A program made the position numbers and the translations under genes. This document shows, piece after piece, positions 3,669 through 39,024 of a stretch of DNA of 64,000 nucleotides (within the stretch, counting starts at the first letter, position 1; each line of letters starts with the position of its first letter). The stretch is from the NCBI GenBank assembly GCA_964187785.1, contig OZ076409.1:77998001-78062000 (forward strand), in the 5' to 3' direction. The notes beneath the pieces were generated by a model, which was given only the letters and a program-made list of their open reading frames with translations, was not told the origin of the DNA and did not search any database. Source of the stretch: Amphiscolops sp. MND2022. Its lineage: Eukaryota.

Positions 3669-5995
3669 GTAGTAGTAAAAGACTCAATTCACTGAGGACA
3701 GGAAGCGTAAACAACAATACGTATGAATGCTGCATTTACATGTTTGAAAGATATATATTTAGAAAGAAATACGATATCAGGAACGACACACAGAACATCT
3801 ACATCTCACATGATAGGTACACATGTTATTGTAGTTAAACTTTGTTCTAGTCAGATTTTTCAAATATTCAGAAAGTGCATGTTTGAATTTTTCCAACGGC
3901 CAATTGAAGTCAATGATTTTATCTGCAAGTAACACATTGCTTATCCAAGGAGCACGAACACAAAATTTTTCCATGGATTTCCACTTTGAAGAGTAGCTGA
4001 TTTCAAAAAGATCAAGTCGTGAATTTCTGGTTAGATTGCATTTTTGCTTCAGAGGCATCGTAATATGGAAATCGACACGTTTGTTCACAATTTTCCAAAG
4101 AAGAATGACATCGGCCCGAACAAGTTGATAACAAATTGGAAGGAGATCCAATCTTTCCAAGGTACATTCATAATCCAGGCCAGGACAGATCCATCGGAGC
4201 ACTTTTTTCTGGAAATTTTCCAAGCACTGTAGGCTAAAACAACAAGGGGCCCAACAAGGTGAAGCATACAAAAGAATACTCAGAACTAAAGTTTTATACA
4301 ACATTAACTTCTTCCCAGTTGAGAGACTAAACGGTAACACACGTCTGATAAATTGAAACACTTTGATCCCTTTTTGGATTGCTTTTAGGATGTGATCTTT
4401 CCAATTTAAATCTTTTGATATCAGGACACCTAAATCCAATATTTGATCTACGGAAATGAATGGGTTTTCTCCAAGGCGTAACGTCGAAGGTTGCGTTGAA
4501 TTTGAGCAGGGGAAAAGCTTCAACTTTGTAGTATTGAACTCCATTCGGTTATCATCATATTGTAGTAGACTGTTGATATCCATTTGGGTTTCAATGTTGG
4601 GTAGCATTGCAATCAGTTTGAGATCATCTGCAAAGAGAAAATCATGTGTGTATTGAATAACAGAGGGTAGGTCGTTTATAAATAGAAGGAACAACAGGGG
4701 ACCCAGGGTACTGCCTTGTGGTACTCCCGAAGTTATGGGCAGAATGCTTGAGCAAATATCATCAAAGCGAACACATTGTGAGCGGTCTGAAAGATAAGAG
4801 GCAAGTAACATTGTGATATTTCGATCAAAACCAAAAGACGGGAGCTTTTTGATGAGAAGATCATGAGGCACAGTGTCGAAAGCTTTCGCAAAATCGAAGT
4901 AAACACAAGAAAAGGGGATGTTTTGATCCAAACAATCATACAGGGCATCGAGATAGTGAATCAGTTGGGTTACTGTATTTCGCTTAGTCATAAAACCGAA
5001 TTGTGAATTAACGATTTTAGCTCTGACGCGAGGATAAATATGATCGAAAAGTATCTTCTCTAGAATGAGTGAAACGCGTGGTAAAATGCTGATTGGCCGA
5101 TAGTTAGTAACACAAGAAATAGATCCAGACTTATGCAGAGGGGTTATGTAAGCCAATTTCCATTCGGAGGGCCAGCTACAAGATTGAATAATTGAGAGAA
5201 ACAGATATTGTACTGCAGGTGCAATAAGATAGCCAGTATGTTTAAGCACAAAACAAGGAATGCCATCGGAAGTACAAGCAGTTGAGTCGTCAGCAAGTGT
5301 TAAGAGGGATACGATAGTTTCTAATTTGATATCGAGGTCGTCCAACGAAACTTCAATGTTTTCGGGCCATACCATATCATCAAGGTTTACCATAGTAGCT
5401 GGTTTGTAGACGGAGGCAAAGTATTTATTTAGCAGTTCACATTTTGAAAAATCGTCAGCTGAAGTATTATCACCATTTTTGAGCGTATTTGGTAAGCCCC
5501 TTTTTGAATTAAGAGACCGTAATAACTTGAAACAATGATTAGAATCTTTCAAATGTAGGTTTTCAACTAAAGAGGCTTTATCTAATTCAATGGAGAAAGA
5601 TAGATTTTGTTCACAGATATTGAGAGAAGCTGCATAAGAAGCGTTCCAATTTTTATCCAATTTTCTTTGTAAAGTGTTTTTACAATTTGCTAGGTGGACA
5701 GTATGAGATGAGAAGTAATATGGATATAATTGGCGCTTTTTACGTTTTTTAGAGAGCGATTTTTCCATGACTTCATGGAAATATTGGTACTATATCTCGA
5801 CAAAAATTGAGCGGAAAAACGAAACAGTTGGAAAGAAAGTTATAAAGTGGGTTAAGATTCTCGTTGAATGTTGCCAGAATTAAAGAGGATCGACTGTATT
5901 GTTTGCCAGTTGGAAGAGACTGTAGCATTTCGAAGGAGTTTATTCGTGTTTAAACAAATACTGGAAAATGATCGGAAATTTTCTCAGAATGGACA
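3669..5995 (-). mobile_element. CR1/L2-group LINE, 5' part runs into the assembly gap
   Basis: ORF 3777-5768 with NYRPISIL, QFGF, DFAKAFDTV, GVPQGS, FADDLK, DLGV; APE end motif ISDHFPV just before the gap; short (TAC)n tail near 3669-3678. Confidence 0.9.
3777..5768 (-). CDS. LINE ORF2 reverse transcriptase portion (663 aa open)
   Basis: Canonical non-LTR RT motifs; upstream endonuclease part is separated by a stop. Confidence 0.85.
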   Translation of the reverse strand: MEKSLSKKRKKRQLYPYYFSSHTVHLANCKNTLQRKLDKNWNASYAASLNICEQNLSFSIELDKASLVENLHLKDSNHCFKLLRSLNSKRGLPNTLKNGDNTSADDFSKCELLNKYFASVYKPATMVNLDDMVWPENIEVSLDDLDIKLETIVSLLTLADDSTACTSDGIPCFVLKHTGYLIAPAVQYLFLSIIQSCSWPSEWKLAYITPLHKSGSISCVTNYRPISILPRVSLILEKILFDHIYPRVRAKIVNSQFGFMTKRNTVTQLIHYLDALYDCLDQNIPFSCVYFDFAKAFDTVPHDLLIKKLPSFGFDRNITMLLASYLSDRSQCVRFDDICSSILPITSGVPQGSTLGPLLFLLFINDLPSVIQYTHDFLFADDLKLIAMLPNIETQMDINSLLQYDDNRMEFNTTKLKLFPCSNSTQPSTLRLGENPFISVDQILDLGVLISKDLNWKDHILKAIQKGIKVFQFIRRVLPFSLSTGKKLMLYKTLVLSILLYASPCWAPCCFSLQCLENFQKKVLRWICPGLDYECTLERLDLLPICYQLVRADVILLWKIVNKRVDFHITMPLKQKCNLTRNSRLDLFEISYSSKWKSMEKFCVRAPWISNVLLADKIIDFNWPLEKFKHALSEYLKNLTRTKFNYNNMCTYHVRCRCSVCRS

Positions 5996-6195
5996 NNNNN
6001 NNNNNNNNNNNNNNNNNNNNNNNNNNNNNNNNNNNNNNNNNNNNNNNNNNNNNNNNNNNNNNNNNNNNNNNNNNNNNNNNNNNNNNNNNNNNNNNNNNNN
6101 NNNNNNNNNNNNNNNNNNNNNNNNNNNNNNNNNNNNNNNNNNNNNNNNNNNNNNNNNNNNNNNNNNNNNNNNNNNNNNNNNNNNNNNNNNNNNNN
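5996..6195. other. Assembly gap (N run)
   Basis: Run of N bases. Confidence 1.
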
Positions 6196-6214
6196 TGATG
6201 ACAAGCGTTATCAT

Positions 6215-6234
6215 TACAGTGGGGTAACCGGCAA
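6215..6234 (+). repeat. Left terminal inverted repeat
   Basis: TACAGTGGGGTAACCGGCAA, preceded by ATCAT. Confidence 0.92.
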
Positions 6235-6892
6235 GGCCTTCCAAAACTCGGAAAATGTTGGGCAAAAACTCGGGAATGCATGGGCGAGTTTTGTTGTTCA
6301 TAACTGAAAATCTCGGAAACGCATGGGCGAAGTCAACTAATTGTTGAACATAATCTGTCCATTCGTTTCCCACCAAGTGTGGCCTTTCAATTTGATAGAA
6401 ACTTTGAATACATATCAAAAAATGTCCGAGATATACCTAATCAACTAAAGATAAGGATTTGCCGATTATCAGAATTTTAGTAAACCCTTCCCAGGTACTT
6501 TTTTTCGAAATAAATTTGAATAATGATTATCAAGCTTCCATGCTTCTCATCATTCCACCTTAAATCGAACAACTCTCATTTAATATAATTGAATAAGCTT
6601 AAACTCATACTATATATCAATCAATAGGAAGATTAGGAGATTACAAGAAGATTAGATTGGTATCATAAGATCTTTCCGGGGGCTTGTCTTTTTGAACAAT
6701 TTAATCCTCATTACTTTTTGTTTGACTCAATTGTTTAATGTTATTGTTGTCAATTATTACAATGTCGCTCCACTACTGTTCTTTTGCCCCAAATCGAAAA
6801 CAAAATGATTCACAAGAGACTGATTCAATTAAGAAACATAATGGAAAAGATATCACAATTGTTATGGCAATGGATACAAAAAATGAATAAAT

Positions 6893-8437
6893 TTAAAAAC
6901 TAAACTGACTTCTGCAATTATTGGCTGCGGAACGACGATATTCGTCATCGCCATTTAAATTGTCCTGGAAACAATCGATAGATACTCGCACAGTTTTCAG
7001 CAGAAAATCGTTGTTAATTGAAAATTTTAGGCTTTTGATAATGTGGCAGAAAGTTTTAGGGAAGATTGGTGGGAGCATATCCCATTGTCGGCCTAGGGTA
7101 CTGTCCCATTCTGCATTTTTGTGGAACTTTTCTGAGTCAGGATCTATATGAAATTTGACTTGGTGTCCAGAACCCATTAAAAAGATATTGTTGGAAATTT
7201 CGTCAACCAAGCAAATGTCCTGATTCATCATTGTGCGTTTGGACTGGGATATCCCGACCAAACGTTTCAGCGCTGACAGGTAATGAAAAGCTCTATTCAC
7301 AGGTGAACAAGCTGCGGACAAGTCCAGAGCTTTCTGCTTCATGTAGTTTGCTTCTGTCAACACTAGCTTTACAGCTGGGTAAGTGATGGAGTAGCATCTG
7401 TCTTCTTCATCGACCAGTTTCGCCATGGCCTTCTTCATCTCCACGTCGAACCATATCTTCTCCAATTTCATCGTGAAGACCGTGCTCCTAATGTTTATCG
7501 TAACGTGGTCACCTGATAACAGAATGCGAATATTCAGTTTCATTTAGTAATAATAATTTATTAACCACTTGAGAAAGATTTATGCGACAAAGTTTCTATA
7601 AGCATGTAAATTTTTCGAGAGGACGCTCGTGGCAAAAAACTTGGTTTCAGTTTTTTTGTTTGATTTTTTTTAGTACCGTAGAAGTTAGACTAGTAATAAT
7701 CAAATTGATCATTTACCTGCTGATGCAATACCATTTTCGCAGGGTACAATGTCCAGAAGTTCGTCTTTCTCGGCAAGACTCGCAATATATGCGGCAATAT
7801 CAATTTTCTGTCTGGGAGTGGTTATAGTGGGTTCTGGTTCTGCATCTGTTTCTACTACTCTCTTTTTTTGCCGCGATGGTTGGACATCTTCGGGCTCCGA
7901 ATCAAACTCTGAAGGCTGCCTCGTGTCAGGATGAGTCCAGTTCTTCGGACGAATTTGTTCATAGTCGATGAACTGGATGTCCTTTGTGCGCCCGTCGAAG
8001 GAAACAGCCATATTTTGCTGGAATGGGTCATTCATGACAACATAACCCGAGTTCAGCAGCTTCGACTCCTCGGCATCTTTTCTAACCTCTTCCAAACTAG
8101 GAATGTCCGCTGGTGATTTCCGTGATGTCCCAGTGAAAAAGATTCTGTCCCCTAGTTGGCGCTTTCTTGGGTCGGGGATGTCAAAAACGGTTTCTGCTGG
8201 CTTCTTGGATTTCCGGCGACCGCGGACATCTTGTAATACTATACATTTTCTAACCGGCCAGCAATTTTGGGGTGTGTTGGGGGACACTTCAATTCTGTCT
8301 GATCCGAATCGCTTCACAAGTTTATCGGGCCAATTGAGGTATTTCACTCGGATTCCAAATGATCCTTCAAACCCAATGATGCGAGCATCTTCCCAAATTT
8401 TTGTTGCAGGATCCAAAACTTGAACTTGCTCTTTCAT
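6893..8437 (-). CDS. Two-exon gene with N-terminal Tudor/chromo-barrel-like domain(s); exons ~8437-7717 and 7512-6893
   Basis: Phase-1 GT-AG intron 7513-7716 joins ORFs 7709-8494 and 6893-7543 in frame; VQVLDPATKIWEDARIIG..IRVKYLNW resembles PHF20/MBT-type Royal-family barrels; start codon approximate. Confidence 0.6.
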
Positions 8438-8737
8438 ATCAAAAACACTGATGAAATCCATTTCAATTAATGAAATTAGTGCTTTATTTTTCAAGAAATT
8501 TAATTTCGTAAACGAGTATTTTCAGTATTGCATTTGCCACTAATGTTTATCAAGCAAGTTTGAGCAAATAAAATCGTTATCGGGACAAATGATTATCAAG
8601 TGAGTTTGATCGACTCAAATCGTTACATACGCATAAGATGAATTTTAAATGTCAGACGCATATTAATTAATTGTCAGACGCATTTTAAATGACAATAAAC
8701 CCCCAGACACTTTTGCACGGAACATCCAAAACGTAGC

Positions 8738-9065
8738 ACGATAAATTTATAATTTTTTGTCAAACGCTTTTCGATCAAGCAGACGCATTTCAAAATCCAC
8801 GTGAGTGTGAGCACGCTAAAACTACAATTACTCGATTTATTTCCGATATAATCAATAACATCAATAACGTAATACGATAATTTTATAATATTTTGTCAAA
8901 CGCTTTTCGATCAAGCAGACGCATTTCAAAATCCACGTGAGTGTGAACACGCTAAAACTACAATTACTCGATTTATTTCCGATATAATCAATAACATCAA
9001 TAACGTAATACGATAATTTTATAATTTTTTGTCAAACGCTTTGCGAACCAGCAGACGCATTTCAA
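8738..9065. repeat. 136-bp tandem repeat (~2.4 copies) in the divergent intergenic region
   Basis: CAAACGCTTT recurs at 8761, 8897 and 9033. Confidence 0.85.
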
Positions 9066-9170
9066 GAATGGAAACGCTAGTGTGGAAACGATAAAGTGTC
9101 AATACGCTTTTGAAAAAACAACAACTACTAGAATAACTTCCAATATAACTTTCGACGTACGACAATCAGG

Positions 9171-12100
9171 ATGACAATACACCCCGAGAAGCTTCTGCAC
9201 GATTACACTGAAACAATTGATGGAAAAAGTTTTGTGGATGCTAAAATTTTGGATGTTTTTGCTGGGCATATTATAAGAGAAAAATCTCGAAAACTGAAAA
9301 GCGCGATCGAAATAGTAATTGAAGGAACTGAATTAAAACTCGAAGATTGTGTAATAAACAAAAAAAAACTTGCTTTGTTGCAATTGGAATATTGCAAATA
9401 ATAATTGTTCGTGGTTTACAAAGTGGGTTTCCATGGACACAATTACGAAGAAGATACGTGTCCTATTTTTTCCCAAATACGCCGCAGCTAATTCCCGACT
9501 CACAACCTTTTGTCAATCCACTTCCAATGCCAACAATCCCAGTGGAGCAGTTTTCTAAACCTGAATCAGGTTTCAGTCAGAAGATGCATACAATTCTCGC
9601 AACATTAGCAGCTACAGAACAAAAGCGGATTCATACTAAGGCCCAGAAGACCTCTCTGCATCAATTTGAAGCCAAGGCTCTGGTTAAGGGTGTTTTTTCA
9701 AACTATTTATCGTACGAAAAGCTGAAGTCAGACATATTTATCTGTACTAAAACTGGTAGTTGGATAAATATGATCAACACGCTGAAAAAAACTTTCCATG
9801 TCGATGGACTGGGTCAAAAACAACTAATTCCTGGTTCTACGGCGATCAAAGAGATGTCAAAACCGATGATTTCAAAGTTTATATCCCTATTCAAACCAAA
9901 AAACACTTTCTCGGGATTCAGAATTGATTTTGTACGTGCTATCAAAGTCATGACATTCATTCTGTTCAAAGGAAGAACTGATTTGCAAGGTCTGAAAGTT
10001 GATATTTGGGGAGATGGTGTTCAAATAGGGAAAAAGGATCAAACTCGAATGGCCTTCCGTTTTCTCGAAGGAACATCTATCAGCAATCAGTCATCAGATG
10101 CACTCTTCTCTTTTGCTGTTTTCCAAGGTATGTTCTGCTATTTTGTCCTGCTGAATCTTTAAATATAATTTAGCTCTAGGTTAGCTTCGCACACTTTACA
10201 ATACGTGTTTACAGGTCACGACGGTCGTTGGTTGCTAGAGCAAAATGTCGGGTACCTGGAACTAGGTGAGCAAGATTCCTCTTGGCTTTACCAGCAGACG
10301 AAACAACTCCATGACGCCGGAGTCCTTTTAACATACAGTGGAGATCAACCATTCCTAAATCGCCTTCTCATTGGAACCTCTGTTGATCACATGGAGAGTG
10401 AAGAAAATCCATCAAAATTGCAGATGTATCTTGGGAATGACGATTCAGTTAAACCAGAAACCGTGCACGAAAAAAGTGGACATCGAGGTGATGTTCGCCT
10501 ACCATTTCGAACCACCATTCCTCATGAAAGTTTGACGTTTTTGCCAGACATCAGATGCGTTTGTCCCGACGGCACTCATGCAATAACAAGGTGTGTCGAG
10601 GGAGACATTAGAAAGTTCATGGAGTTGAAAATTCTCCAATCTGAAGATGACTCAGCTACAGTTGATTATATTAGGGAAAATTTTCAGCGCAATTTGACCG
10701 AGAGAGGTTGGAAAGAGCCTGGCTTCGAATTTGACATTGACAAACGCAACAAAAAATGTGCTCCCATTTCCCTTAGTGGCAGAGAAGCTATCACTGGCAT
10801 TGCTGATATGTACGAACTTGCTGAGGCTGGTGTTCAGCATGAACTGTTCGAAGGAGTTTTTTCCGAGAACAAGACTGTTGGAGCCTTGTCGGGTACAAAA
10901 AGTGCAAGCATGAATGTGTTGAAAAATCTTCATCCCAATTCATTCGAAAATATCGAAAGCCCATGTCAAATGAAACTTTTGGTTGCAGCTGAACTCTGGA
11001 GAAAGTCACTAAATCAGCTTACCGTGCTGATGAGGACGAGGAAGAAATTCGAAGAACAGGACTTTTCCGACTATAAATACTGGTCAGAAATCCACTATCA
11101 CATTTCGATTGTACTGTTCGATGTAAAACTAGGTTTGACACCGTACAGACTGAAACTGTGCCTGATTCCCCAGCTGTTAGAAGGAGGCTACATTGAATCA
11201 CCCTTTAACCACCTGTGCGAAGGCCCCGAAAAATCAAATCATCATGTCCATAGAGACTTTCAGCAAAAGACCATGCGAGGGGGAGGGACAGTTCGACACG
11301 CCGACCCCATGTTTCTCGAAATGTTTTTCACTTTCTGTTCTGGTCTCCGGTTTTCGACTTTGGAAGGCACAATCGACGAACAGCTCTCACTTTGCCATCA
11401 ACGGCTTTTCAATGAACCCATAGAGGTGAACCTATCTTTTTTAGACTCCCTGGGACCAACTGAGAAAGCCATCATTCCCGTTGGAAAAGTTCGAGAGAAG
11501 TCCCGCCTTTTCTTGGGTAAGGATTTTTTTTGTACCTATATGCCCACGTCCAACTTTTTTGGTTATGAAACCTAAGTGGTATAAATTTAGCGAAATTTAG
11601 TTGGATAAACCAACAATATAGTGTGAATTTTGCTTTTCTTGCGACTCCGAAATAAATGTAGTGGATCGTTGAACAAATGTTTGACTTGAGTTTTGCTGAA
11701 TATTTGTATTGCACCGCAACACGTTGACAAATATTAGTCCTAAGTTACTCGGATGAAATACTTCCTCAAAACAGCAACAGATTCCAAGTACCACTGGCGT
11801 AGTGGTTACTTCGTGCGACGTTCCGTCGTTCCGCCGCTCGTTCGCTCTTGGTATACAGGTTCGCTTCTCTGCGCCGCTGTTGGTGCAGCCTTCGGTAACC
11901 AGTGGCTGGTATTGTGTCTGGTATTGTGTGTGGTAGCCATTGGCTGGTATTACTTGCCATAGATGTCGATTGCCGGTGACGACCGCGCATTCAACAACTG
12001 TGGCAATTAGTGAGTAGATTGAGATTGGAATTCTCTCTGGCGGAGAGAGAAATCCAATCTCAATCTACTTATTTTTATGTTTTCAACTTATTATTTGCAA

Positions 12101-13138
12101 TTAGTTCTTCGCTTAACAGTGAGTTTTGAATGATGCAATTACATACCTGTTCAGAACGATCGTAGCAAAGAAAATAGAATACAGTAGTGATATTATTAAA
12201 AGCAACAAAAGACAAATTTTAGAATCAAATATCTATCAAAAAGCATTTGACTGAAGGACTTGATATGTTTTGATTGAGAAATTATATTAAAGTCTCAATG
12301 AAACCACGCTGTAAAAATAGGCGTTTTCGAAAATACTAAGTTTTTAATAATCTCACTACTGTACATGCAAAACCGTCTTAGAATTATACGGCAATAAGCA
12401 CGTTCGGCAATGGAAGGACCACCTTAGAAACCTGTTGTTACATATTCGAAGTTCGGTATATAACCAATTGTTTTCACAGAACTAAACAATATTCCGTTTG
12501 CTCCAGGATCGAGATTCTTTCTGCACGGGAAATTCAATAAAGAGCAACGAATTCAACATGAAAACCAAGATGGAAAAACTCTTGGACCCGCTGAGTGTCT
12601 CAAAAAAGTTATCAAAAAAGCGGGAGGGAAAGTTCTAGAACGAGCAGCATTGAATACTCTCCTCTCCAGACACTCCAAGTTGCCACACATTTACGTGGTT
12701 CTCCAAAATGACACAGATCTTATTAGTGCAACAACGTCGTGTGATTCTTTGCCACAAGTGACAGAAGTTATGGCCAAAGGAAAATGCAAAAAAAGGAAAC
12801 TAAATGAACCAAGTCGAACCAGTTACGTTTTACGACACTTGGCCAGTCGTGGACTTACGTTTCTATCCGTTGACTATATTTTGAAAAGTATCGAAACTTC
12901 AACAATTTTGGATGTGGAGTCTTTTGCGTTCAAACCAGGGCCAGACATCCCATCAACTTCTGTTCGTGATCATCGCAAAATTTTCCTTCTTCAGAGGAAT
13001 CCCGAACTACAAAACACAACTTCAGCTATAACATCGGTACTTCGTAAACGACGAGAAATGCTGAAGAAGCGCGAACAAGAAAAAATGAATGACGCTCAGA
13101 AAGAACACGATGAATCATCCTCAGACTCATCAGACTGA
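9171..13138 (+). CDS. RAG1/Transib-like DDE transposase with C-terminal BRCT; exons 9171-10127 (frameshift in A9 at 9360-9368), 10215-11516, 12480-13138
   Basis: Two phase-1 GT-AG introns (10128-10214, 11517-12479) keep frame; motifs WGDG (D 10013), YSGDQPFL (D 10343), CPDGTH, LTPY, CEGPEKSNH (E 11228) are collinear with RAG1 SCDG, GYDEK, IDALH, TNY, SEGNESGNK; last exon FFLHG..LKKVIKKAGGKV..IYVV..VDYILKSIE is BRCT-like. Confidence 0.75.
12013..12069. repeat. Near-perfect hairpin (26-bp stem, 5-nt loop) in transposase intron 2
   Basis: AGTAGATTGAGATTGGA-ATTCTCTCT / AGAGAGAAA-TCCAATCTCAATCTACT, one mismatch. Confidence 0.9.
12180..12363. mobile_element. Tc1/mariner-type MITE (TA-flanked)
   Basis: TA-CAGTAGTGATATTATT ... 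AATAATCTCACTACTG-TA; relative at 21657-21897. Confidence 0.75.
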
Positions 13139-13697
13139 GAATCATTTGATAATCATAATTGATAAATCGTGAAAACTTTGATTCGAACAATAATAAATTA
13201 TTTTTACCTGTTTTTATTGTCAAAATTTAATTGAATCATTCGAATTGTTTTAAACAAATTCAAAATAGAAACGTACCAAAAAGTAGCAGCGCAAAATACT
13301 AAGTAAAAACCGAAAAGAAAGAATAAAACCAAATCTTTCAAAGACCAAGAACTGGAATTCAAAATTCTAAAGTATTACTACAGTAAACTGCGAAATTGCA
13401 TCAAGTGCTGAAATACTTCGCTGAAAACAAGTTTCGAGATTTAATAATAATATATATCAATACAATGAAATAAAATAATAAAGGTTAAGAATATGTAAAA
13501 CAAAAAATTTTATCTCGAAAATGGTTTTCAACGAACTAATCAATCAAGAGACCAAAAAGTGTTTCGACCGAGTTTTTTGTCAACAATTTGAAATAGGTGA
13601 GTTAATGATATGTTCCTGTTTGGGAAATTGAGAGACATGTACCGGTTGATAGTTTGCACAAATTTTCGTCGATTGCTCTTGGATCGGCTGCCTTTTT

Positions 13698-16600
13698 TTA
13701 ATTGAAGCTGAGGACATGTAGTGCTTTGGCCAGAAGCTCCCATTTCATTAGCCTACAGTTCCCAATGGCACTCTCTAGAATAACTTTCGTCATTAACGAT
13801 AAGAAATGTGGGAAACATTTCTCAAGAGGTTCATCATTGTCCCGTTCCCTCTGGTAAACAGTCAAAGTCGTGTCTAAAAACATATATGCACAAGCATTAG
13901 TAAAACTGCCTCGAACCCATAGAAGAAGTAAAACCCGAATTTTTTTGAGAAATTAACTTAATCCGATTTTAATTTTAAAAATGAAGATTTTTTCGATTTT
14001 TTTGCTTTTTACCTTTTATCTCTTCTAACAAACAACTGAGAAACAATTATATGAAAACTGAATTTCAAAATTACCTAGATCACAGATGGTGAGAAAATTG
14101 AATCCCACGGCCACGCTGTCCGCACAGGTTCTGACCATATGTATCATGCCTGCTGGCATGATCATTGACTCGCCGCCTGTTATCGTCACTTTAAACACTT
14201 GACTTTGGAGGTGGGTGTCACTTGGTAGGAAAACATTTTGTTTTGTTGCCTCAATGCACCAATTCTCGAGAATTTCTTGGTTTCGAACTGTTCCAGGAAT
14301 CATGAAAAACTCTTTTTTACCGTGAAGAAGATGGTAAAAGACGCTGGTATTCGTGTAGTCAACATGCCAAGGTGTAATGGAACCTTTTTGACTGAGAAGA
14401 ATATAGCAATTTTGCTCCAGCTCAAAATTGAATAAATGAGACACTGAAAGTTCTTTAACTGCCGTTGGTACATCGAAATGCAAGTTCTTTGTGAGACTGG
14501 AGCTAAGATCAAGGACATTCATTGGGCCGCTCATAGCTCCAAACTCAATGGCATTTACAAAATCTTTTCCTGAGAGTGTCAAACACAGGAGTTTTTGCAG
14601 CTGAAATAGACATGTGTTGTATATGAAAAAAGAATACACTTCGAAGATCTACAATTTTGGTTTTAAAATATAAAAACCCTAATATTTTTTAAATGTTCGG
14701 TTTTCATTGGTGAAGTTAAAAAGACGAAGCCAAAAACGAACACTGACAGGTTTGTACATTCGGACAGATAATTGTACATCTTCTGCGTGTAGACAGTCTT
14801 CGAAGATGTTTCTTCGCGCTCCAAAGTTGATGTTGGGCAATTTCATACCATCCATATGTCCTCGAACAATACAGGCTCTTTTCCGCTGCAGCTCCTCCTC
14901 TATTTCGCTGCTGGTAACATTGGTGCAGCAAACTCGCATCTCGGACCCGGAAGATTCTCTGATTACATCCAGCAGCTCATGATGCTCTGCTTCATCCACA
15001 AATGCAACCAGAGAAACTTCTTCATCTTCTGCTTGAACCTGTTCGTAGCTGTTGGAATCTGAAACGAAAATTGTCAATATCATAATAAAGTTTTTTAAAT
15101 GATTGGTAGATGTTTTTCGAATACTTTTGATGAGTATCAGTGGATTCGTTTGGCAAGTAGTAAAATTGGTATGTAGAAATTTTGATATAGGTAAAACAAT
15201 AGGATTTTATTGTACCTTGGGGATTGTGTGTGGCTACTTCTTCACTTTCGTCTTCCTCACGGTTCTCTTCCTGGAGGGATTCTTCATTGCTGTCAGAATC
15301 TGAAACAAACATCGTCAAAATCAATTTAACGTTATTGAGATGATTGGTTGTTTGTCGAATATTTTCGATACGTAATATTGATATAGGTAAACAAGTCGAA
15401 GTCGTGTCTAAAAACACATATGCACAAGTATTAGTAAAACTGCCTTGAACACATGGATGGAACAAAATCCGATTTTTTTAAAAATTAACTCAATCCGATT
15501 TTAATTTTAAAAGTAAAGATTTTTTGATTTTTTTTGCTTTTTACCTTTCATCTCTTTTAACAAATAACTGAGAAACAATATTTTATGAAAACTGAATTTT
15601 ATTGTACCTTGGCGAACGTGTGTGGCTACTTCTTCTTCACTTTCGTCTTCCTCACAGGTCTCTTCCTGAAGGGCTTCATTGCTGTCGGAATCTGAAACAA
15701 AAATCGTCAAAATTATTATAAAATTATTGAGATTTGTGGATGTTTTTCGAATATTCTCGATAAGTATCAGTGGAATCGTTTGACAAGTAGGCAAATTGGT
15801 GTAGAAAAATTGATATAAGTAAAACGATAGGATTTTATTGTACCTTGGCGAACGTGTGTGGCTACTTCTTCTTCACTTTCGTCTTCCTCACAGGTCTCTT
15901 CCTGGAGGGCTTCTTCATCGTTGTCAGAATCTGAAACAAAAATCGTCAAAATCATAATAAAGTTAGAGAAGATTGGATGTTTTTCGGATATTTTCGATAA
16001 GTATCAGTGGAATCGTTTGACAAGTAGTCAAATTGGTGTAGAAAAAATGATATAGGTAAAACAATAGGATTTTATTGTACCTTGGCGAACGTGTGTGGCT
16101 ACTTCTTTTTCACTTTCGTCTTCCTCACAGATCTCTTCCTGGAGGGCTTCTTCATCGTTGTCAGAATCTGAAACAAAAGTCGTCAAAATCATAATAAAGT
16201 TAGAGAAGATTGGATGTTTTTCGGATATTTTCGATAAGTATCAGTGGAATCGTTTGACAAGTAGTCAAATTGGTGTAGAAAAAATGATATAGGTAAAACA
16301 ATAGGATTTTATTGTGCCTTGGCGAACGTGTGTGGCTACTTTTTCACTTTCATCTTCTTGACGGTTCTCTTCTTGGAGGGCTTCATTGCTGTCGGAATCT
16401 GAAACAAAAATCGTCAAAATCATAATAAAGTTAGAGAAGATTGGATGTTTTTCGGATATTTTCGATAAGTATCAGTGGAATCGTTTGACAAGTAGTCAAA
16501 TTGGTGTAGAAAAATTGATATAGGTAAAACAATAGGATTTTATTGTACCTTGGCGAACGTGTGTGGCTACTTTTTCACTTTCATCTTCTTGACGGTTCTC

Positions 16601-19150
16601 TTCTTGGAGAGCTTCATTGCTGTCGGAATCTGAAACAAAAATCGTCAAAATCATTATAATGTTAGAGAAGATTGGATGTTTTTCGGATATTTTCGATAAG
16701 TATCAGTGGAATCGTTTGACAAGTAGTTCACAAATTGGTGTAGAAAAATTGATATAGGAAAAACAATAGGATTTTATTATACCTTGGCGAACGTGTGTGG
16801 CTACTTTTTCACTTGCATCTTCTTGACGGTTCTCTTCTTGGAGGGCTTCTCCATTGCTGTCAGAATCTGAAACAAAAATCGTCAAAATCATTATAAAGTT
16901 ATTGAGAAGATTGGATGTTTTTCGGATATTTTCGATAAGTATCAGTGGAATCGTTTGACAAGTAGTTCACAAATTGGTGTAGAAAAATTGATATAGGAAA
17001 AACAATAGGATTTTATTGTACCTTGGCGAACGTGTGTGGCTACTTTTTCACTTTCATCTTCTTGACGGTTCTCTTCTTGGAGAGCTTCATTGCTGTCGGA
17101 ATCTGAAACAAAAATCGTCAAAATCATTATAATGTTAGAGAAGATTGGATGTTTTTCGGATATTTTCGATAAGTATCAGTGGAATCGTTTGACAAGTAGT
17201 TCACAAATTGGTGTAGAAAAATTGATATAGGAAAAACAATAGGATTTTATTATACCTTGGCGAACGTGTGTGGCTACTTTTTCACTTGCATCTTCTTGAC
17301 GGTTCTCTTCTTGGAGGGCTTCTCCATTGCTGTCGGAATCTGAAACAAAAATCGTCAAAATCATTATAAAGTTATTGAGAAGATTTGTGGATGTTTTTCG
17401 AATATTTTCGATAAGTATCAGTGAAATCGTTTGGCAAGTAGTCAAACTGGTATGTCGAAAAATTGATATAAGTAAAACGATAGGATTTTATTGTACCTTG
17501 GCGAACGTGTGTGGCTACTTCTTCTTCACTTTCGTCTTCTTGACGGTTCTCTTCTTGGGGAAAGTGTGTGACTACTTCTTCTTCACTTTCGTCTTCCTCA
17601 TAGGTCTCCTCCTGGAGGGCTTCATTGCTGTCGGAATCTGAAACAAAAATCGTCAAAATCATCATAAAGTTATTGAGAAGATTTGTGGATGTTTTTCGAA
17701 TATTTTCGATAAGTATCAGTGGAATCGTTTGGCAAGTAGTCAAACTGGTATGTCGAAAAATTGATATGAGTAAAACGATAGGATTTTATTGTACCTTGGC
17801 GAACGTGTGTGGCTACTTCTTCTTCACTTTCGTCTTCTTGACGGTTCTCTTCTTGGGGAAAGTGTGTGACTACTTCTTCTTCACTTTCGTCTTCCTCATA
17901 GGTCTCCTCCTGGAGGGCTTCATTGCTGTCGGAATCTGAAACAAAAATCGTCAAAATCATTAAAAAGTTATTGAGAAGATTTGTGGATGTTTTTCGAATA
18001 TTTTCGATAAGTATCAGTGGAATCGTTTGGCAAGTAGTCAAACTGGTATGTCGAAAAATTGATATGAGTAAAACGATAGGATTTTATTGTACCTTGGCGA
18101 ACGTGTGTGGCTACTTCTTCTTCACTTTCGTCTTCTTGACGGTTCTCTTCTTGGGGAAAGTGTGTGACTACTTCTTCTTCACTTTCGTCTTCCTCATAGG
18201 TCTCCTCCTGGAGGGCTTCATTGCTGTCGGAATCTGAAACAAAAATCGTCAAAATCATCATAAAGTTATTGAGAAGATTTGTGGATGTTTTTCGAATATT
18301 TTCGATAAGTATCAGTGGAATCGTTTGGCAAGTAGTCAAACTGGTATGTCGAAAAATTGATATAAGTAAAACGATAGGATTTTATTGTACCTTGGCGAAC
18401 GTGTGTGGCTACTTCTTCTTCACTTTCGTCTTCCTCACAGGTCTCTTCCTGGAGGGCTTCTTCATCGCTGTCAGAATCTGGTTCGATGTGAACTCGACGG
18501 TACCGACGTGACGTCCTTCTCTGTTCTCTTCTTCTTCTCGAATCCATCCTCGCTTGCCATCGTGGGTGTTCGATCTTCTTCTTTGGGGTCCCTTTGATTT
18601 TAATCAGGTCTTTGATTCGATGGGAATAACCTTTCCCCTCCCGCCGTCTTTTTTCCGACCAGCTGTACTCTCCTGGCACATTGCCTTTGGGCTTTTTTTT
18701 AAGAACAGCGGATTCCCCTTTAAGATAAAACGATTTGTATTTTTGCTTCAGGCAATCGTAAGCAGAACTTTCCTTGCACAATTCCTCGATGTTTTCTGGT
18801 GTTGGTTCCAACAAATTTCCTGGGTACCATTCCTCCCTTTGCAACTCAAACACTTTCAGGGTGCAAGTTCTTCCGAGGGAGTGTTGAGCGGTCCTGTGAT
18901 AGCTAAAGAACGGTCCTCCGTCTTTCTCGCCGCATCCACAAAAGCGACAAATAAAATTTGCCCGACTGTAAATTTTTTGTGCAATGCAGGTGAACTCCAG
19001 CTGGTGTTCTTCAACAGGTCTCTTCCTTGGTGCCCAGTCTTTGTACATGTGCCTCTGGCACGCAACTTTTTCGCTGAATTTTCTCCGGCATTCTGAAACA
19101 CATATTCCGATTAGTATTGGTGAAAAACATGTTTGAAAAAAATTCGACAT
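13698..19150 (-). CDS. Multi-exon JmjC histone demethylase-like gene (KDM2/KDM7 type) with N-terminal Cys/His region and acidic repeat exons
   Basis: Exons 19150-~18391, 12 repeat exons, 15058-14748, 14600-14075, 13873-13698 with consistent phases; YILLSQKGSITPWHVDYTNTSVFYHLLHGKKEFFMIP..MPAGMIHMVRT..DSVAVGFNFL keeps HxD..H and the 2-OG Lys; a possible frameshift may extend the C-terminus to 13540. Confidence 0.8.
15059..18480 (-). repeat. Tandem array of intron+exon units (mostly ~231-241 bp, three of 298 bp), each exon coding DSDSNEALQEE(T/N)xxEDESEEEVATHVRQ-like acidic peptides
   Basis: Each unit has TTTCAG|ATTC acceptor and CCAAG|GTA donor (one GC donor near 16316); example exon 15691-15608 is 84 nt, phase 1-1. 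Confidence 0.88.
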
Positions 19151-19707
19151 TTTAAATTCTATTTCAGATATCCGAACAGATCATCAAAATGATAATGCCA
19201 TTTAAGACTTGGAAACGCATGGGCAATTTGAAACGCAGAAATACATGGCTTTTTCATTGCTTTTCATCACTCGGAAACGGATGGGCGAACGTTCAATTCA
19301 TTTTATGCCAATTAGCTTACGTTATTTCATACTTCGGTTTTTATCCCCTATTTTGAAACGATAATTGAAGGTTCGCACGTCATCAGGTAATTATCACCAC
19401 AGTTGAGTTGAAAAGCGTCCTTAAATGAGCTCATCTTCATGCAAATCTAAATAGCACATCCGCAAAGCTATTACCAACGGTATGTACTACTTTTTTCAAT
19501 AATTAAATAATTCATTATCAGAAATGAATAATTATCATATATGTACTATTTAATACGAAGATCACCATTTTTCTTTAATTATAATATACCACAGTTGATT
19601 GACGAAGCGTCTTTGAATTAGTTCGAATTTGGATCGCTCAAGGAAAGGATTGAGCACTCACCATTCAATCCAAACAGTAGCTAGAAAACAGTCTCTTTTA
19701 CATAACG

Positions 19708-21075
19708 ATGAACCCTCCTCAACATGAGAAATCTCTCTCTTACACTGTCTTGGGGACTAGCCCGGCTGTGACAAATTCTGTTGCTCCAAACGAAACATTT
19801 GAAAGATTTTCGACTCCATTTAAACCGAATGAAAGCAACTTTGCATACTACATGAGTACTCCCTTGGATCAATCTAGTTCGACACAACAGTTGTATGGAT
19901 CACCCAGTGTGTCATCTAAAAGCTGGCCAAGTTTCACCCAAGTTGAACAAAGGATATTTTCACAAATCTCTAATATAGAAGGTGTGAATTATGAAGATAG
20001 CCCTTCGGACGTCTCGATAATGGTACAAGCTCAACTTGCTGCAAATCAAATGACACCTCTGTTAATCAACACTGCAAATCAACTGAACCACACTCCGAAT
20101 GACAGTACGACGAATCAACTGAGCCACACTCCAAGTGACAGTACGACGAATCAACTGAGCCACACACCGAGTGACAGTACGACGAATCAACGGAGCCACA
20201 CCCCAAGTGACAGTACGAGCCACACTCCGAGTGACATCATGGCAAGCCAACTGAGCCGTTCTTCAAGTGATATCGCGGCAAGTCAGCTGAGCCAAACTCC
20301 GAGTGATATCATGGCAAGTCAGCTGAGCCGTTCTTGCAACGACACCTTGGCAAACATGGAAAGATGCCAACAGGAGATAGCGAACAAGCGGAAACTTAAC
20401 CATTATGATGAGGAAAACCATGGCCCAAAAAGTAAACGATGTGTTCCCAAAAACTATGAGAAAAATTTGCGAGAAATTACCCCAGTGCACCTAACATTAT
20501 GCACAACTGTTGAAGCGCGACTCTTGTCAGACCTTTATGACATAATGAAGCAATTCAAATTCGCAAAATCTCTAACCAGCATTGACAAAACCAATTTGTT
20601 TGGGGACCTCATTGCTTATTTGCTGGAATTTTCTATTCCAAAGTGTAGAGATCGCAAAATTTTGAGCATTACAACTCATGCCGTTTTACAAATGGTCCCT
20701 CAAATTCAGCACAATAGAAGTTCTAACTCAAGTGACTTGTTAGTCTTGCAAATTGAAGATGAAGCTGGGTACTTGGACAGCTTCAGAATTCCTCACATTG
20801 TTGGAGAAGCAATGTTAATATATTTTGAAGCTGTACGACCGTACTTCATAAAACCTGAAGGTATCGACCAGAAAAAAAGGTTCATGCAGTCACCCAGTCA
20901 AGGGATACCACCATATTACGTCATGACGGAGCCATTCTTTGTCAACAGCTGGGGAAAAACACAATTCAAAGTGCGGAACATAAGAAATCGGATTGAACAG
21001 GTAACTAATCAAATACTGTTTGATAAGAATTACTTGACTCACTTTGCAATACCCCTTACTTCCAAGATGACTTGA
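19708..21075 (+). CDS. Ser/Thr-rich N-terminus with 12-aa repeats plus truncated tyrosine-recombinase-like domain
   Basis: NQLSHTPSDSTT repeats (~20078-20345); LIAYLL..KCRDRKILSIT, AMLIYFEAVRP and PFFVNSWGK resemble the N-terminal half of a YR catalytic domain; no HxxR/H/Y half. Confidence 0.5.
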   Translation: MNPPQHEKSLSYTVLGTSPAVTNSVAPNETFERFSTPFKPNESNFAYYMSTPLDQSSSTQQLYGSPSVSSKSWPSFTQVEQRIFSQISNIEGVNYEDSPSDVSIMVQAQLAANQMTPLLINTANQLNHTPNDSTTNQLSHTPSDSTTNQLSHTPSDSTTNQRSHTPSDSTSHTPSDIMASQLSRSSSDIAASQLSQTPSDIMASQLSRSCNDTLANMERCQQEIANKRKLNHYDEENHGPKSKRCVPKNYEKNLREITPVHLTLCTTVEARLLSDLYDIMKQFKFAKSLTSIDKTNLFGDLIAYLLEFSIPKCRDRKILSITTHAVLQMVPQIQHNRSSNSSDLLVLQIEDEAGYLDSFRIPHIVGEAMLIYFEAVRPYFIKPEGIDQKKRFMQSPSQGIPPYYVMTEPFFVNSWGKTQFKVRNIRNRIEQVTNQILFDKNYLTHFAIPLTSKMT

Positions 21076-21569
21076 AAGATAGATGCGAAAACCAATTCTG
21101 ACCAGGCGTCTGCGATGTTGTCTATCCTACAATGGGTCGAGGAATAATCGCGACCAAACCATTTAACAAGGATGACGTTATTTTTGACTACCACGGACAT
21201 GTAGAAGAAAACACGAACAACGTCGACTACTACTGCAGTCTGGACCCAGAGAACCGCAAGCCAGAATACTGCATCGAGGTTAAAACAAGGCCGGGAAGAA
21301 TTATTGATGCAACCTCGGAAATATGCCCCATCCACAACGATGGCAGAAGGTGCCTTGCTCGATTGTGCAATTACTCAAGTACCTTTGATGGTGGAAAGAC
21401 CAACCCAGCTTGTAACATGAAACTGGTCGAATTGAAATGTACATACTTGAAAAATAATCCGCGTTACGTGCTACTTATTGCAAAGCGGAAAATTGAACCC
21501 CTGGAGCAGCTGATGTTTGATTACATGGACCCCGAAGCCAATAGAATTTTCGGCGGTAATGCCGAGTAA
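21063..21569 (+). pseudogene. SET-domain methyltransferase (PR-Set7/SETD8-like), probably disrupted
   Basis: GRGIIATKPFNKDDVIFDYHG, IDAT, ARLCNYS, CNMK, IEPLEQLMFDY; in-frame TGA at 21099-21101 in Q-F-*-P-G-V upstream of ATG 21132. Confidence 0.8.
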
Positions 21570-21656
21570 AACCATTGATAAACTCGAACTTTGTTTTTAA
21601 CTTATCAGTTTTTATATAATTTTTGTTGGAATATTAGTCATTGTCATCTAGTCAAA

Positions 21657-21897
21657 TACAGTGGTGATATTTTTAAAAGCAACAAAGCCGCTTCAAAGTC
21701 TGCGGCAGGTGAAAAAAAAACTTCAAAGTCATCCCAAAACATGTATTTTCGAAAAAATCTTCAAACAAACATATTTGTAAACTAGATAAAAATCTAGAAT
21801 ACGTTTATTTTTATAAGTTTTCATAAACCACTGCCGTTTTAGAGATATTCGATTTTGAGATTTGCCTTTTGATGCTCTCAATAATATCACTACTGTA
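21657..21897. mobile_element. Tc1/mariner-type MITE, same family as 12180-12363
   Basis: TA-CAGTGGTGATATT ... AATATCACTACTG-TA; shared AAAAGCAACAAA. Confidence 0.75.
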
Positions 21898-22400
21898 TAT
21901 TATCTTCGGGTTTTGTTTTCTTTGTCAATTTTGAATTCAAAATATGCCAATGGATATTCCAAAAAGCAGATATCGATTAACACTCTCAAGGAATCATATA
22001 AAAGAACTAACTGGGGCAGACGGTCGGATCGTTGAGGAGGCTGATTTGATCCCTATCAGTCAAAATGTGCTCCTGGAGAGTGACTTGTTCATCATCGGTC
22101 TCAACTTCCTCGTTTCCTGCAGCAACGTAGTCAAACGTGAAACATTCGGATTTAGTTTTCCTATTATTCATGTGTTCAAATAGTGGTTGATGAACTGCGG
22201 GCATTAGTCAAAACATAGACACATGTAAGATTTCAAAAAGTTCATGTTAAAAACTAACTCTGACAGACGGTTGGCTCATCTCTGTCAGTCGAAACGCCGC
22301 GGTGTTCTTGAAGAACTGCTTCGGTACTGGCTTCTCTATCATGATGAAGGCTTGGCCTAAATTTGGGCTGAAAAAAACAACAAATTTGCCAAATTTACAT

Positions 22401-22449
22401 TAAAGTGGGGTAACCGACAAGGCCTTCCAAAACTCGGGAATCCATGGGC
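22401..22449 (+). repeat. Internal degenerate copy of the transposon left end
   Basis: TAAAGTGGGGTAACCGACAAGGCCTTCCAAAACTCGG matches 6215-6251 with two substitutions, one in the heptamer. Confidence 0.9.
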
Positions 22450-22567
22450 ACGTTTTGATATCCGTAACCGAATTTCTGGCAACCAAATGAGCAAAACTTT
22501 TGAGATTAGAATAACAGTGTATTTCTATATAAGCATTATATTTAATTTTTTTTGACTAAGAAATATC

Positions 22568-22926
22568 GGTGAATTCCCAAATAACATAAGAGCAAATAAC
22601 ATAAAAACAAAATTAGTTTCAAATAACATTAAAATGAAATGGGTTTCACTAAACATAAAAATAAAATTGTTAATGAGAAAATATCAGTGGTCAAAAGCAT
22701 ACACAATTCAAAAGATTCACTGAAAAAAGTGTGGAAATTACAGATAAAATTTTCTGAGTTCGATCGTTTTACCGGGTATTCGGTTTTATTTTTATGTTCT
22801 TTGACACTAATTTTGTTTTTATGTTATTTGCATTCATTTGTATGTTTAGTGAAACTCATTTCAATTTTGTGTTTTGAAACTAATTTTATTTTTGTTGTTT
22901 GTTCTTATGTTATTTAGGAAATCACC
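22568..22926. mobile_element. Foldback MITE with long imperfect TIRs
   Basis: GGTGAATTCCCAAATAACATAAGA ... TCTTATGTTATTTAGGAAATCACC; inner GTTTCACTAAACATA / TATGTTTAGTGAAAC; TSD not clear. Confidence 0.65.
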
Positions 22927-24581
22927 AACGTTTATCAAGAAAAAATATTGAAAGCAATTATTAAAACCAAAGTATTAAAAAGCCAACCCTGAAAGTTAAT
23001 AAATCAACTGATTAACTCTAACCTGTTTCAAATGGTCCGGTAAGTCGTCTAGTTCAATGTCCAGCTTCCGGATCCGTAAAAGTAACGTTTTTAACATGGC
23101 AATGACAATTGAAAACAAATGACTAACTTTTACACGCACAGTATCAATATGACCTCATCGGAATATGCGACGAAAGAATTTCGTCCAATCAGAAGCGAGT
23201 ATTCGGTTTCGTTCATCAAGATTACATGTAGTTTGATCAACAGAAAAACAAATAAACTTTTGCTCCCGTATTACAACAATCTTACTGATTTACTTGTGCA
23301 CTTAAATCACTAAAATGGAAGTGAAATTACTTTGAACATTTAGTAACATTCCACTTCTTGGAGCGTTGACTTTAACAACTGATAAGAACGTTCACACTTT
23401 GAAAAAATGGTGAATATCAGAACAATCATTTGATCAATTCTCAATAAATAAATCAATGACGTTTCACAGGATACCAACTCAATTAATAAATATGAAAAAA
23501 TCAATTGTTTTGTTATGATTGAAAAAACCTAAACTCATTTTATATATCAACTATACTGTTCTTTTGCCCAAAACAAAGAATCCTGATTTTTGATGATTAG
23601 ATTAATTGTCAATAAATAAATCAATGACGATTCACAGGATACCAATTAAATTAATAAATATCAAACAACCATATATATCAATCAAGGTGAATAGTTGAAT
23701 AAAGTTGTTTCTGTAGTAAGTGTACAACTATCAAACAATTTTTTGTTATGATTGAAAAAACTTAAACTCGTATTATATATCAACTATACTGTTCTTTTGC
23801 CCCAAAACAAAAACGATTCACAGAATACTGATTTAATAAGTTCCAAAAAAATGAAATACATCAAAATTACATACTAACACATCATAATATACCTACACAT
23901 CATAATACATCAAAATATTTGTAATTATCATAATTGCCCGATCATAATTGCCATTATATACAAAAGAAAAGAATAGTTAAGTATTAAACAGTATTAAAAT
24001 AAAGTAAACTAAATTTTATCACGATAATAATCTTGCAGTGATTGGCCGGAACGAAAAAATTATTAGGGTTATATTCCTGCAGATATCGGCTTCGGAACGA
24101 AGATTTTCGTCATTGCCAATTTTATTTGTCCCGCCTAAAATACTGGGAAAATAATAGTTGAGCTGATATTTCTTAGTCAAAAAAAATTAAGAATTTAATT
24201 TGATAACTAAATTAATTTTAACTGAATTAATTTGATAAACCAAAAACTGAACACTGAAAATCTGCATGTGTAGATAAATAATGAGACACTTCCATGTCAA
24301 AGCAGTGTATTGAATTGGCCGAAGCGAGTGGCAGATCTATCTAAATCTTGAAATTCTTTGAGCAAGCGATGGAATTACTTGCCCAATTTACTCTCATCAA
24401 CGAGTATGCATGGGCAATTAAAGCCATCGCTCCTGCAAAGAAACTCAATACGTAGCTTGTGCTTCCTCGGAAATCAATAGGCAACAGTTTTGGCTGCGAA
24501 ACGAATGGGCATTTTTGGCCCATACATTCATTCATGTCCATCATTTTCCGAGCCGCACAACGAGTAAAATCTGCATTTTCG

Positions 24582-24601
24582 TTGCCGGTTACCCCACTGT
24601 A
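24582..24601 (-). repeat. Right terminal inverted repeat
   Basis: TTGCCGGTTACCCCACTGTA is the exact reverse complement of 6215-6234, followed by ATCAT. Confidence 0.92.
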
Positions 24602-24603
24602 AT

Positions 24604-25245
24604 CATGTATTGGAAGACGGCATCTCAACTTTACCCCTTGGTCACTACATGATCAGAGATGTGCATGTTGAGCAAGACATTGTGGATGAACCAGAATGGG
24701 GATATGAAGAGGAAGAGATACCATCAAGTCCCACATGGGATGAACTGAACGGCAATGATCCGCAAGTCACAATCTCCCAAATATTCCCAGATGAGGCTCC
24801 GATGACGGCAAATGCCCCTCTGTCATCACCATTGCGTGTGCGAGTAAGTGAGGATGAACCAATCTCATTAACTCAACTGATGGAAGCATGGTCGCCTCCC
24901 GATCCGGGCATGCACCAAAGAGAGTACAGTGATTCCGAGCTGGAAGACCAGTTCAGTAACATGGACGAATCAGTTGAGGAGCGAAGCCCTCCGAGAAATC
25001 CCTTTATTGACGATGAGGCAGAGGAAGCATCAGATACAGGTGAAACTGCAGACGATGATGAAGAGTCAGACCCTAAGGACTGCGTTATAGTCGAGACACT
25101 AACAGAAGACGAGGCGAACGCCATTGAAGACTTGGAATACCTGATTGATTTCGACAATTGGTTCAGCGACGATGAATTTGTGAACCGCATCAAAAGAGTG
25201 AAAAGGAGACGGATGGAGATTGTGAGCGACAGCGAGAGCGAATAA
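24604..25245 (+). pseudogene. 3' part of a highly acidic ORF interrupted by the transposon
   Basis: Removing the element and one TSD gives the open frame DDKRYH-VLEDGISTLPLGHY..; D/E-rich, RNPFIDDEAEE, basic KRVKRRR near the end. Confidence 0.6.
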
Positions 25246-25489
25246 GACTTCATGTTATTTCATATGCTACTAGCTAGTCTGATGTGTGCAAAGCTTATTG
25301 TTTTCTTTGTATTGTTCTCAAGTACCTGTTGAGTGAACTTTCAAGTAGTTATACGCGCTTCAGTAAATTCAGAAATTCAGTCTTGTTTTGCTCTCATTTT
25401 ATTGGCCGACGCGTTGTCTAATAGCATAGAAGATTCACCAAAAGATGTAGAATATATTTCTCCAAATGGAAAACGAATGGACAGATGGT

Positions 25490-39002: not shown

Positions 39003-39006
39003 TTTT

Positions 39007-39024
39007 TGGTGCCGCGACCCGGGA
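39007..39024 (+). promoter_or_regulatory. Primer-binding site, most similar to tRNA-His complement
   Basis: TGGTGCCGCGACCCGGGA four bases after the 5' LTR. Confidence 0.75.

Follow-up and report, generated by a model that had tools for sequence, protein, structure and literature searches.

A large transposon with a predicted RAG1-like transposase fold and candidate chromatin-modifying cargo in Amphiscolops sp.

Can a DNA transposon carry its own genes for writing, erasing and reading chromatin marks, and to which transposase lineage would such an element belong? The question is raised by a 64,000-nucleotide stretch of the Amphiscolops sp. MND2022 genome (assembly GCA_964187785.1, contig OZ076409.1, positions 77,998,001 to 78,062,000 of the forward strand; hereafter the window), in which a first-pass annotation had proposed a RAG1/Transib-like transposon with histone-modifying cargo. 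We find that the element spans 6212-24604 in the window copy (18,393 bp, termini CATTACA...TGTAATG) and moves as one 16-19 kb unit, inserting at varied sites with a 2-bp duplication. It combines methyltransferase-like, demethylase-like and candidate reader genes, is present in many near-identical copies and carries a signature of selection tied to transposition; the transposon chromatin regulators cited in Kojima 2025 (PMC12730594) are single genes from plants, fungi and oomycetes (here and below, citations refer to the parts of each source available to us).

The element transposes as one unit

Searching both element ends against the 1.07-Gb genome returned at least about 30 near-identical matches per end and a second subfamily at 88-95%. 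Both ends are paired at 27 loci at least, which span 11.2-23.0 kb with 18,943 bp as the median; amplification and activity of the element are recent. The perfect 20-bp inverted repeat first taken as the element boundary is present at 6215-6234 and 24582-24601. The true ends lie further out, however: CAT precedes this repeat in 20/20 left-end loci (the first loci inspected) and ATG follows it in 19 of 20 right-end loci, with the window copy (ATC) as the sole exception. The terminal inverted repeat (TIR) is therefore 23 bp long and the element ends at 6212 and 24604.

6210-6211, no strand: left 2-bp target-site duplication (TSD), AT (paired copies and empty sites)
6212-6234, + strand: left 23-bp TIR, beginning CATTACAG (comparison of end loci)
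24582-24604, - strand: right 23-bp TIR, final base C for G in the window copy only (comparison of end loci)
24605-24606, no strand: right 2-bp TSD, AT (paired copies and empty sites)

A 5-bp TSD had been proposed, yet 27/27 paired copies are flanked by a 2-bp TSD comprising 10 different dinucleotides (expectation from mismatched pairs, 10%; where one locus has its right end in duplicate, the extra end is not counted), and a duplication of 4-8 bp occurs in 0/27. The ATCAT repeat is found in a single pair of the 27, the window copy, where it is composed of the TSD AT plus the terminal CAT on the left and includes the variant last base on the right. The empty-site paralogues retrieved, which are uninterrupted copies of the host repeat, all read through the site with one AT (8/8). 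No target-site preference other than AT-richness was seen in the 27 sites.

The host repeat around the element has at least 40 matches at 90-98%, and its flanking parts occupy window positions 6196-6211 and 24605-25300. A reading frame seems to terminate at the empty site, and its last part looks like the C-terminal end of a protein-primed DNA polymerase of the Polinton/Maverick type, a motif judged by eye and without profile support. An N gap of 200 bases at 5996-6195 lies 16 bases left of the element, and those 16 bases match the empty site. A single-copy host gene cluster and an assembly chimera beside the gap were both rejected in view of the 27 paired copies and the match of the left flank to the empty site; given 27 paired copies, an assembly artefact is unlikely.

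A four-gene set conserved across families

The gene content first described was confirmed in the order and on the strands given, with Pfam matches to the BRCT domain of the DDE transposase, to JmjC and to SET. In family A the genes run Tudor-like (-), transposase (+), JmjC (-) and tyrosine recombinase-like (YR-like)/SET (+).

6893-8461, - strand: Tudor-like gene, 454 aa, predicted exons 8461-7717 and 7512-6893, with homologues in families B, C and D
9171-13138, + strand: DDE transposase, RAG1-like in its modelled fold and ending in a BRCT domain, with exons predicted at 9171-10127, 10215-11516 and 12507-13138
12587-12925, + strand: transposase BRCT domain (Pfam BRCT_2)
13698-19150, - strand: JmjC gene, 16 exons, 982 aa (splice prediction; Pfam)
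15216-18452, - strand: tandem array of 237-bp and 298-bp units, each unit one in-phase acidic JmjC exon
19708-21569, + strand: YR-like/SET gene, with a low-complexity N-terminus, a possibly recombinase-derived middle domain and a SETD8-like SET domain
21135-21524, + strand: SET domain, SETD8-like (Pfam, PDB)

When protein matches were mapped onto the 27 paired copies, the transposase, JmjC and Tudor-like genes were present on all 27 and SET on 26. The full four-gene set in 26/27 copies upholds the proposal that SET, JmjC and Tudor-like genes are conserved cargo. Two outcomes had been named in advance as counting against it, copies without the cargo and single-copy genes; the cargo is in other copies, and its genes are multicopy at unrelated sites.

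Three further families, for which one representative each was fetched and checked, extend this result. Family B (C1:98.45 Mb, 19.4 kb) has the gene order of family A, family C (C2:32.33 Mb, 17.8 kb) reads SET/YR-like (-), Tudor-like (+), transposase (+), JmjC (-), and family D (C10:35.45 Mb, 16.5 kb) reads transposase (+), JmjC (+), Tudor-like (-), YR-like/SET (+). The gene set is therefore common to families A-D, while its order takes three forms. They also share ends of the form CATTAC...GTAATG, and the one copy checked per family has a 2-bp TSD (B, AT; C, TC; D, AC), while pairwise transposase identity between families is 30-53%. Among the matches listed, linkage holds for 15/15 family B JmjC matches (SET and Tudor-like within 15 kb), for 26/30 family C transposase loci (a SET match no more than 12 kb away) and for 9/10 family D SET matches (transposase no more than 14 kb away). 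A fifth family, ~75% identical to the family C transposase (C5:13.48 Mb, C1:104.29 Mb and others), has Tudor-like and SET matches nearby.

Outside this genome the transposase has 359 relatives at E 0.001. The Tudor-like gene stands head-to-head with the transposase in 3/13 metagenome contigs, the arrangement seen in families A and B; linkage to JmjC or SET was found in 0/13, the contigs (1.3-5.9 kb) being too short for it. Twelve candidate relatives in viral contigs yielded no confirmed case, and none of ten homologue clusters carries an informative name. Two short open reading frames (ORFs) in the element, at 21935-22330 and 11600-12064, have no Pfam match and may represent a further gene remnant or noise.

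For each gene, nonsynonymous to synonymous rate ratios (dN/dS) were estimated between one A1 copy and four A2 copies, picked among the longest matches and different for each gene, with differences shared by all four A2 copies separated from those private to one copy. Shared differences gave dN/dS values of 0.17 for the transposase, 0.10 for SET, 0.19 for JmjC and 0.08 for the Tudor-like gene (tested against site counts, p 0.005 to 5e-7), compared with 1.48, 1.50, 1.35 and 1.13 for private differences; p values for the shared-versus-private contrast are 0.0025, 0.0055, 0.051 and 0.0002, in the same order. To judge from these substitutions, all four genes are purified along the transposing lineage and decay neutrally after insertion, a combination that speaks for a function in the element rather than in the host.

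It is accordingly very improbable that the cargo consists of passengers or host-benefit genes with no part in transposition. One paired copy lacks SET, a ~0.9-kb copy retains only the two ends and the window copy carries a deletion in SET, so a jump does not in each case require the cargo in cis, although these may be post-insertion losses. Against a passenger role, four families whose transposases are 30-53% identical have all retained this gene set despite rearrangement, and it is the lineage changes that are purified while post-insertion changes are neutral, unlike those of host-selected genes; we consider this alternative largely refuted already. Because of the cargo, SET and JmjC matches in the genome are more numerous by well over a hundred, and these are at risk of being miscounted as host gene expansions.

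A predicted RAG1-like fold with departures from the Transib definition

The transposase contains the motifs WGDG (~10013), SGDxPF (~10343) and ExxEKSNH (~11228), and its catalytic residues are kept among aligned relatives (D 63/65, D 60/61, E 66/67). A three-exon gene with a BRCT domain is supported by homologue P0001; the BRCT_2 match scores 27.7 bits against a Pfam cut-off of 27.3 and is shared by 20/40 aligned homologues. The transposase core receives no name from Pfam or PDB sequence searches. An alignment-based structure model of the family C core (predicted local distance difference test, pLDDT, 92.9; a model without alignment, pLDDT 31, was not used) is closest to RAG1 (Z 18.5, root-mean-square deviation 4.0, 385 residues aligned, 11% identity), followed by BbRAG1L (Z 18.2), HzTransib (13.4), P element (12.3) and Hermes (8.7), and a Foldseek search agrees with this RAG1-like ranking. 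Identity across the structural matches is 8-13%, and 9-13% to RAG1 or HzTransib. The transposase would presumably cut at the CATTAC ends using its DDE triad.

The first-pass annotation correctly described the element as large, mobile and of the DDE type, with a fold like that of RAG1, but its Transib label is not supported. Likeness to Transib and RAG1L (ProtoRAG) extends to the DDE triad, the RAG1-like fold over ~385 residues and CA-starting TIRs; the element differs in its 2-bp rather than 5-bp TSD, its CATTACA ends, the absence of zinc motifs, its C-terminal BRCT and its 9-13% identity. In place of the CACA(A/G)TG-like Transib heptamer, the ends begin CATTAC in all four families. The zinc motifs C(2)C and H(3-4)H of the stretch that links the second D to the E were found in 0/35 and 0/53 homologues with locatable spans, of 150. 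RAG, HzTransib and BbeRAGL produce 5-bp TSDs (10.1101/2023.08.20.553239), and TSDs of 5, 3 and 2 bp occur within Transib relatives (preprint 10.64898/2026.08.26.747230); with TSD length this labile, the 2-bp TSD should not be over-read. The element is also unlike ProtoRAG in its 16-19 kb size, its three cargo genes and the lack of a RAG2L match: no kelch or PHD match was found beside the transposase in the ORFs scanned (some short ORFs lay outside the scan), and the neighbouring gene is JmjC. That gene had been placed in the RAG2L position, an arrangement that is not fixed, as family D JmjC lies in tandem with the transposase. The mechanism is RAG1-fold-like on the model, and the element departs from Transib in the membership tests that could be run.

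According to Kojima 2025 (PMC12730594), the motifs C(2)C and H(3-4)H are common to all CMCT lineages, which make TSDs of 2-5 bp and mostly end in CA..TG. The element resembles this clade in its CA..TG termini, a TSD within 2-5 bp and a RAG1-like core, and some CMCT members likewise carry epigenetic cargo (TET/JBP; PMC12730594), but it has neither C(2)C nor H(3-4)H and so differs from the clade as defined there. PlavakaB is similar in its ends (CATCA..TGATG, compared with CATTA..TAATG, 4/5), in its 2-3 bp TSDs and in being large and cargo-bearing, whereas it is fungal, has TET/JBP cargo and zinc motifs, and the element has no Pfam Plavaka match. The best class reading is an unnamed, zinc-free CMCT-type lineage of RAG1-fold transposases.

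It is possible, but doubtful, that the element is instead a divergent Transib/RAG1L proper, or a Repbase family under EnSpm, Mirage, Plavaka or similar. Such a placement would suit the top structural matches (RAG1, BbRAG1L and HzTransib), the 5-, 3- and 2-bp TSDs within Transib (10.64898/2026.08.26.747230) and the closeness of the PlavakaB ends (CATCA...TGATG) and 2-3 bp TSDs. RAG1 and Transib are, however, the sole CMCT members among the structural matches listed, so their top rank does not discriminate; among 40 homologues no RAG1, Plavaka or Transposase_21 profile matched (25 families listed, to single matches at E 0.63), and the transposase profile searched against the PDB did not retrieve RAG1 or HzTransib at E 10, in addition to the absent zinc motifs. 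RAG1, Plavaka and DUF1280 profiles also had no match in the genome, in a search where controls were silent too. As an unnamed zinc-free lineage, a RAG1-fold transposase that lacks a zinc site thought universal in its clade and has a 2-bp stagger bears on the evolution of RAG target geometry.

Putative cargo enzymes and their fusions

The nearest solved relatives of the SET and JmjC cargo are SETD8/KMT5A and KDM2A/PHF8/KDM7A, with catalytic motifs kept; compared with these host relatives the cargo proteins show new fusions (a recombinase-like domain for SET; a predicted C2H2-like finger and acidic exon array for JmjC) and a Phe at the SET switch. The predicted JmjC protein joins a Cys/His-rich first exon and 12 acidic cassette exons to a KDM2/KDM7-like JmjC domain, in a 16-exon model that is phase-consistent under predicted splicing. 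Its domain matches Pfam at E 1e-9 and is nearest in the PDB to KDM2A, PHF8 and KDM7A (E 3e-18 to 1e-15), with HxD at ~14366 and the distal His at ~14141. The HxD...H iron ligands and the cosubstrate lysine are kept in families A-D, and the protein is probably an active lysine demethylase. No PHD or CxxC was seen in the element JmjC, and a C2H2-like exon lies upstream of JmjC in families B, C and D, its match falling below the Pfam cut-off. Copy-number change in the array at 15216-18452, or alternative splicing, could tune the acidic linker. One unit of this array has a GC donor.

The SET domain matches Pfam at E 8e-9, and SETD8 accounts for the 14 best of 17 PDB matches. YHG, RLxN and FDY are invariant in 7/7 SET sequences, and the GxG, YxG, RLxNHS and F/YDY motif set is present, family D lacking the second Gly of GxG; the protein is probably an active lysine methyltransferase. 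In SETD8, the Y334F change raises the methylation state. Phe occupies the Tyr334 position in 7/7 SET sequences, and the PDB entry that matches best, 3F9W, is listed as SETD8 Y334F and has a sister entry that holds dimethyl-lysine (PMC3529403). A C-P-x-H...C-like insert before RLxN has its Cys, His and Cys in 7/7 sequences and may form a metal site.

That insert, absent from the SETD8 alignment, and the low SET identity to SETD8 are what one might expect if SET, JmjC and the Tudor-like protein acted on non-histone substrates, as a switch that puts methyl groups on the transposase or host silencing proteins and takes them off. For such on/off control it would suit an element to encode both a writer and an eraser, yet both enzymes have histone-directed nearest relatives and putative DNA-binding fusions, and we judge a non-histone switch improbable.

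The first-pass annotation placed the Tudor-like and YR-like genes correctly, but the two labels are leads only. The Tudor-like protein has an N-terminal barrel-like region with conserved aromatics and an Atlas feature score of 0.82-0.85 (a lead), and no Pfam or PDB profile match. The YR-like region reaches an Atlas score of 0.91 to DUF3504 and Phage_integrase clusters, a lead based on 88-100 shared features; it has no Pfam or PDB match, no R-K-H-R-H/W-Y tyrosine recombinase set is evident in the alignments, and no longer homologue was found, which is weak evidence. A single 680-aa ORF in family D holds both the YR-like region and SET, so the two form one protein.

A Tudor-like protein beside a SETD8-like writer raises the thought that the cargo imitates a host H4K20-methyl/Tudor/BRCT repair module of the 53BP1 type, steering the repair of excision breaks or marking and reading targets instead of countering silencing. 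The Phe at the Tyr334 position in 7/7 sequences and the best match to the Y334F mutant 3F9W (PMC3529403), the BRCT on the transposase, and the head-to-head placement of the Tudor-like gene and transposase in A, B and 3/13 metagenome contigs all fit this idea. It is nonetheless unlikely: target preference does not go beyond AT-richness in 27 sites, a single BRCT may just bind DNA ends, and the demethylase is explained less directly.

Proposed self-targeted chromatin editing

Our preferred reading, at somewhat better than an even chance, is that the element edits its own chromatin and thereby stays active. SET and JmjC would act as lysine methyltransferase and demethylase on element chromatin, steered to element DNA by putative DNA-binding fusions (the C2H2-like finger before JmjC and the recombinase-like domain before SET), and together with the Tudor-like protein would hold that chromatin open for expression and excision. 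The set could thus work as an anti-silencing kit, in which a repressive or blocking mark is removed and the element's own mark laid down; anti-silencing or target conditioning is what we infer for the cargo. From the nearest solved relatives, the writer substrate is presumably H4K20, and the eraser substrates presumably lie in the range of H3K36, H3K9, H3K27 or H4K20. Precedent for anti-silencing cargo exists in TET/JBP, SET and Vandal systems (PMC12730594), among them SET-carrying HarbingerS and MuDR of oomycetes and the anti-silencing Vandal MuDRs of plants. Like the present element, HarbingerS, MuDR and Vandal are DNA transposons encoding chromatin regulators; they belong to other superfamilies, with one regulator each and no JmjC, SET and Tudor-like set in the account given there (PMC12730594). 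No published element with such cargo was found in the literature searched, Repbase and Dfam lying outside the search, and the parts covered of PMC6431247, PMC8245031, PMC4411706 and PMC9435367 contain no description of the element.

Several points weigh against self-targeted editing. It is known here from sequence, with enzyme activity, substrate, expression and binding all predicted. Purifying selection indicates that the proteins matter to the element and is silent on their function, the dN/dS counts are small (2-14 per class, four copies per gene), and the JmjC contrast is borderline (p 0.051). The Cys/His exons of families A and B align marginally (E 0.02), and it is by predicted splicing that these exons connect to JmjC. 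The SET domain of family A reads NYS where B, C and D read NHS, and the Tudor and YR identities are weak leads.

A bolder formulation, which we hold tentatively and at less than an even chance, is that of an undescribed, superfamily-level, zinc-free RAG1-fold lineage whose methyl-lysine circuit is complete and aimed at itself, with a SETD8-like protein as a writer predicted to exceed monomethylation, a KDM2/7-like protein as the eraser, a Tudor-like protein as the reader and the transposase BRCT. If true, the element would reproduce the host H4K20-methyl/53BP1 module in small and mobile form, its parts staying together while their order changed, and a RAG1-like transposase would have acquired chromatin reading by a route separate from RAG2. 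Family C contains intact intronless transposase copies, which make it directly testable whether a transposon rewrites the histone marks on itself.

Variation among copies and the window neighbourhood

The copy in the window carries damage. Its YR-like/SET gene lacks about 550 bp at ~21041-21046, leaving a SET frame of 155 aa compared with 322 aa in most copies, and its transposase is out of frame at an A9 run (9360-9368) near the start of the gene. This A-run break, with variable run length, occurs in 5/6 A1 copies examined, while the run is interrupted and the frame open in 2/2 A2 copies; the break may reflect real non-autonomy, slippage or homopolymer assembly error.

22398-22450, + strand: internal degenerate copy of the left end

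Together with the right end, this degenerate copy delimits a nested unit of 2.2 kb. Elsewhere, locus L113 (C7:54.61 Mb) is the ~0.9-kb derivative with two ends only, and L029/L030 (C4:78.20 Mb) are one copy whose right end and flank are duplicated 1.6 kb apart.

Other repeats and fragments lie on both sides of the element in the window. Two convergent LINE-like reverse-transcriptase regions occupy 429-5789, an 83-bp tandem array 25438-28020 and a ribosomal protein S5-like fragment 28296-28862. A Bel/Pao long terminal repeat retrotransposon at 38515-47003 contains two long ORFs and has terminal repeats of 228 bp that are identical to each other, and 21-bp arrays in inverted orientation at 49619-50160 resemble a small foldback element.

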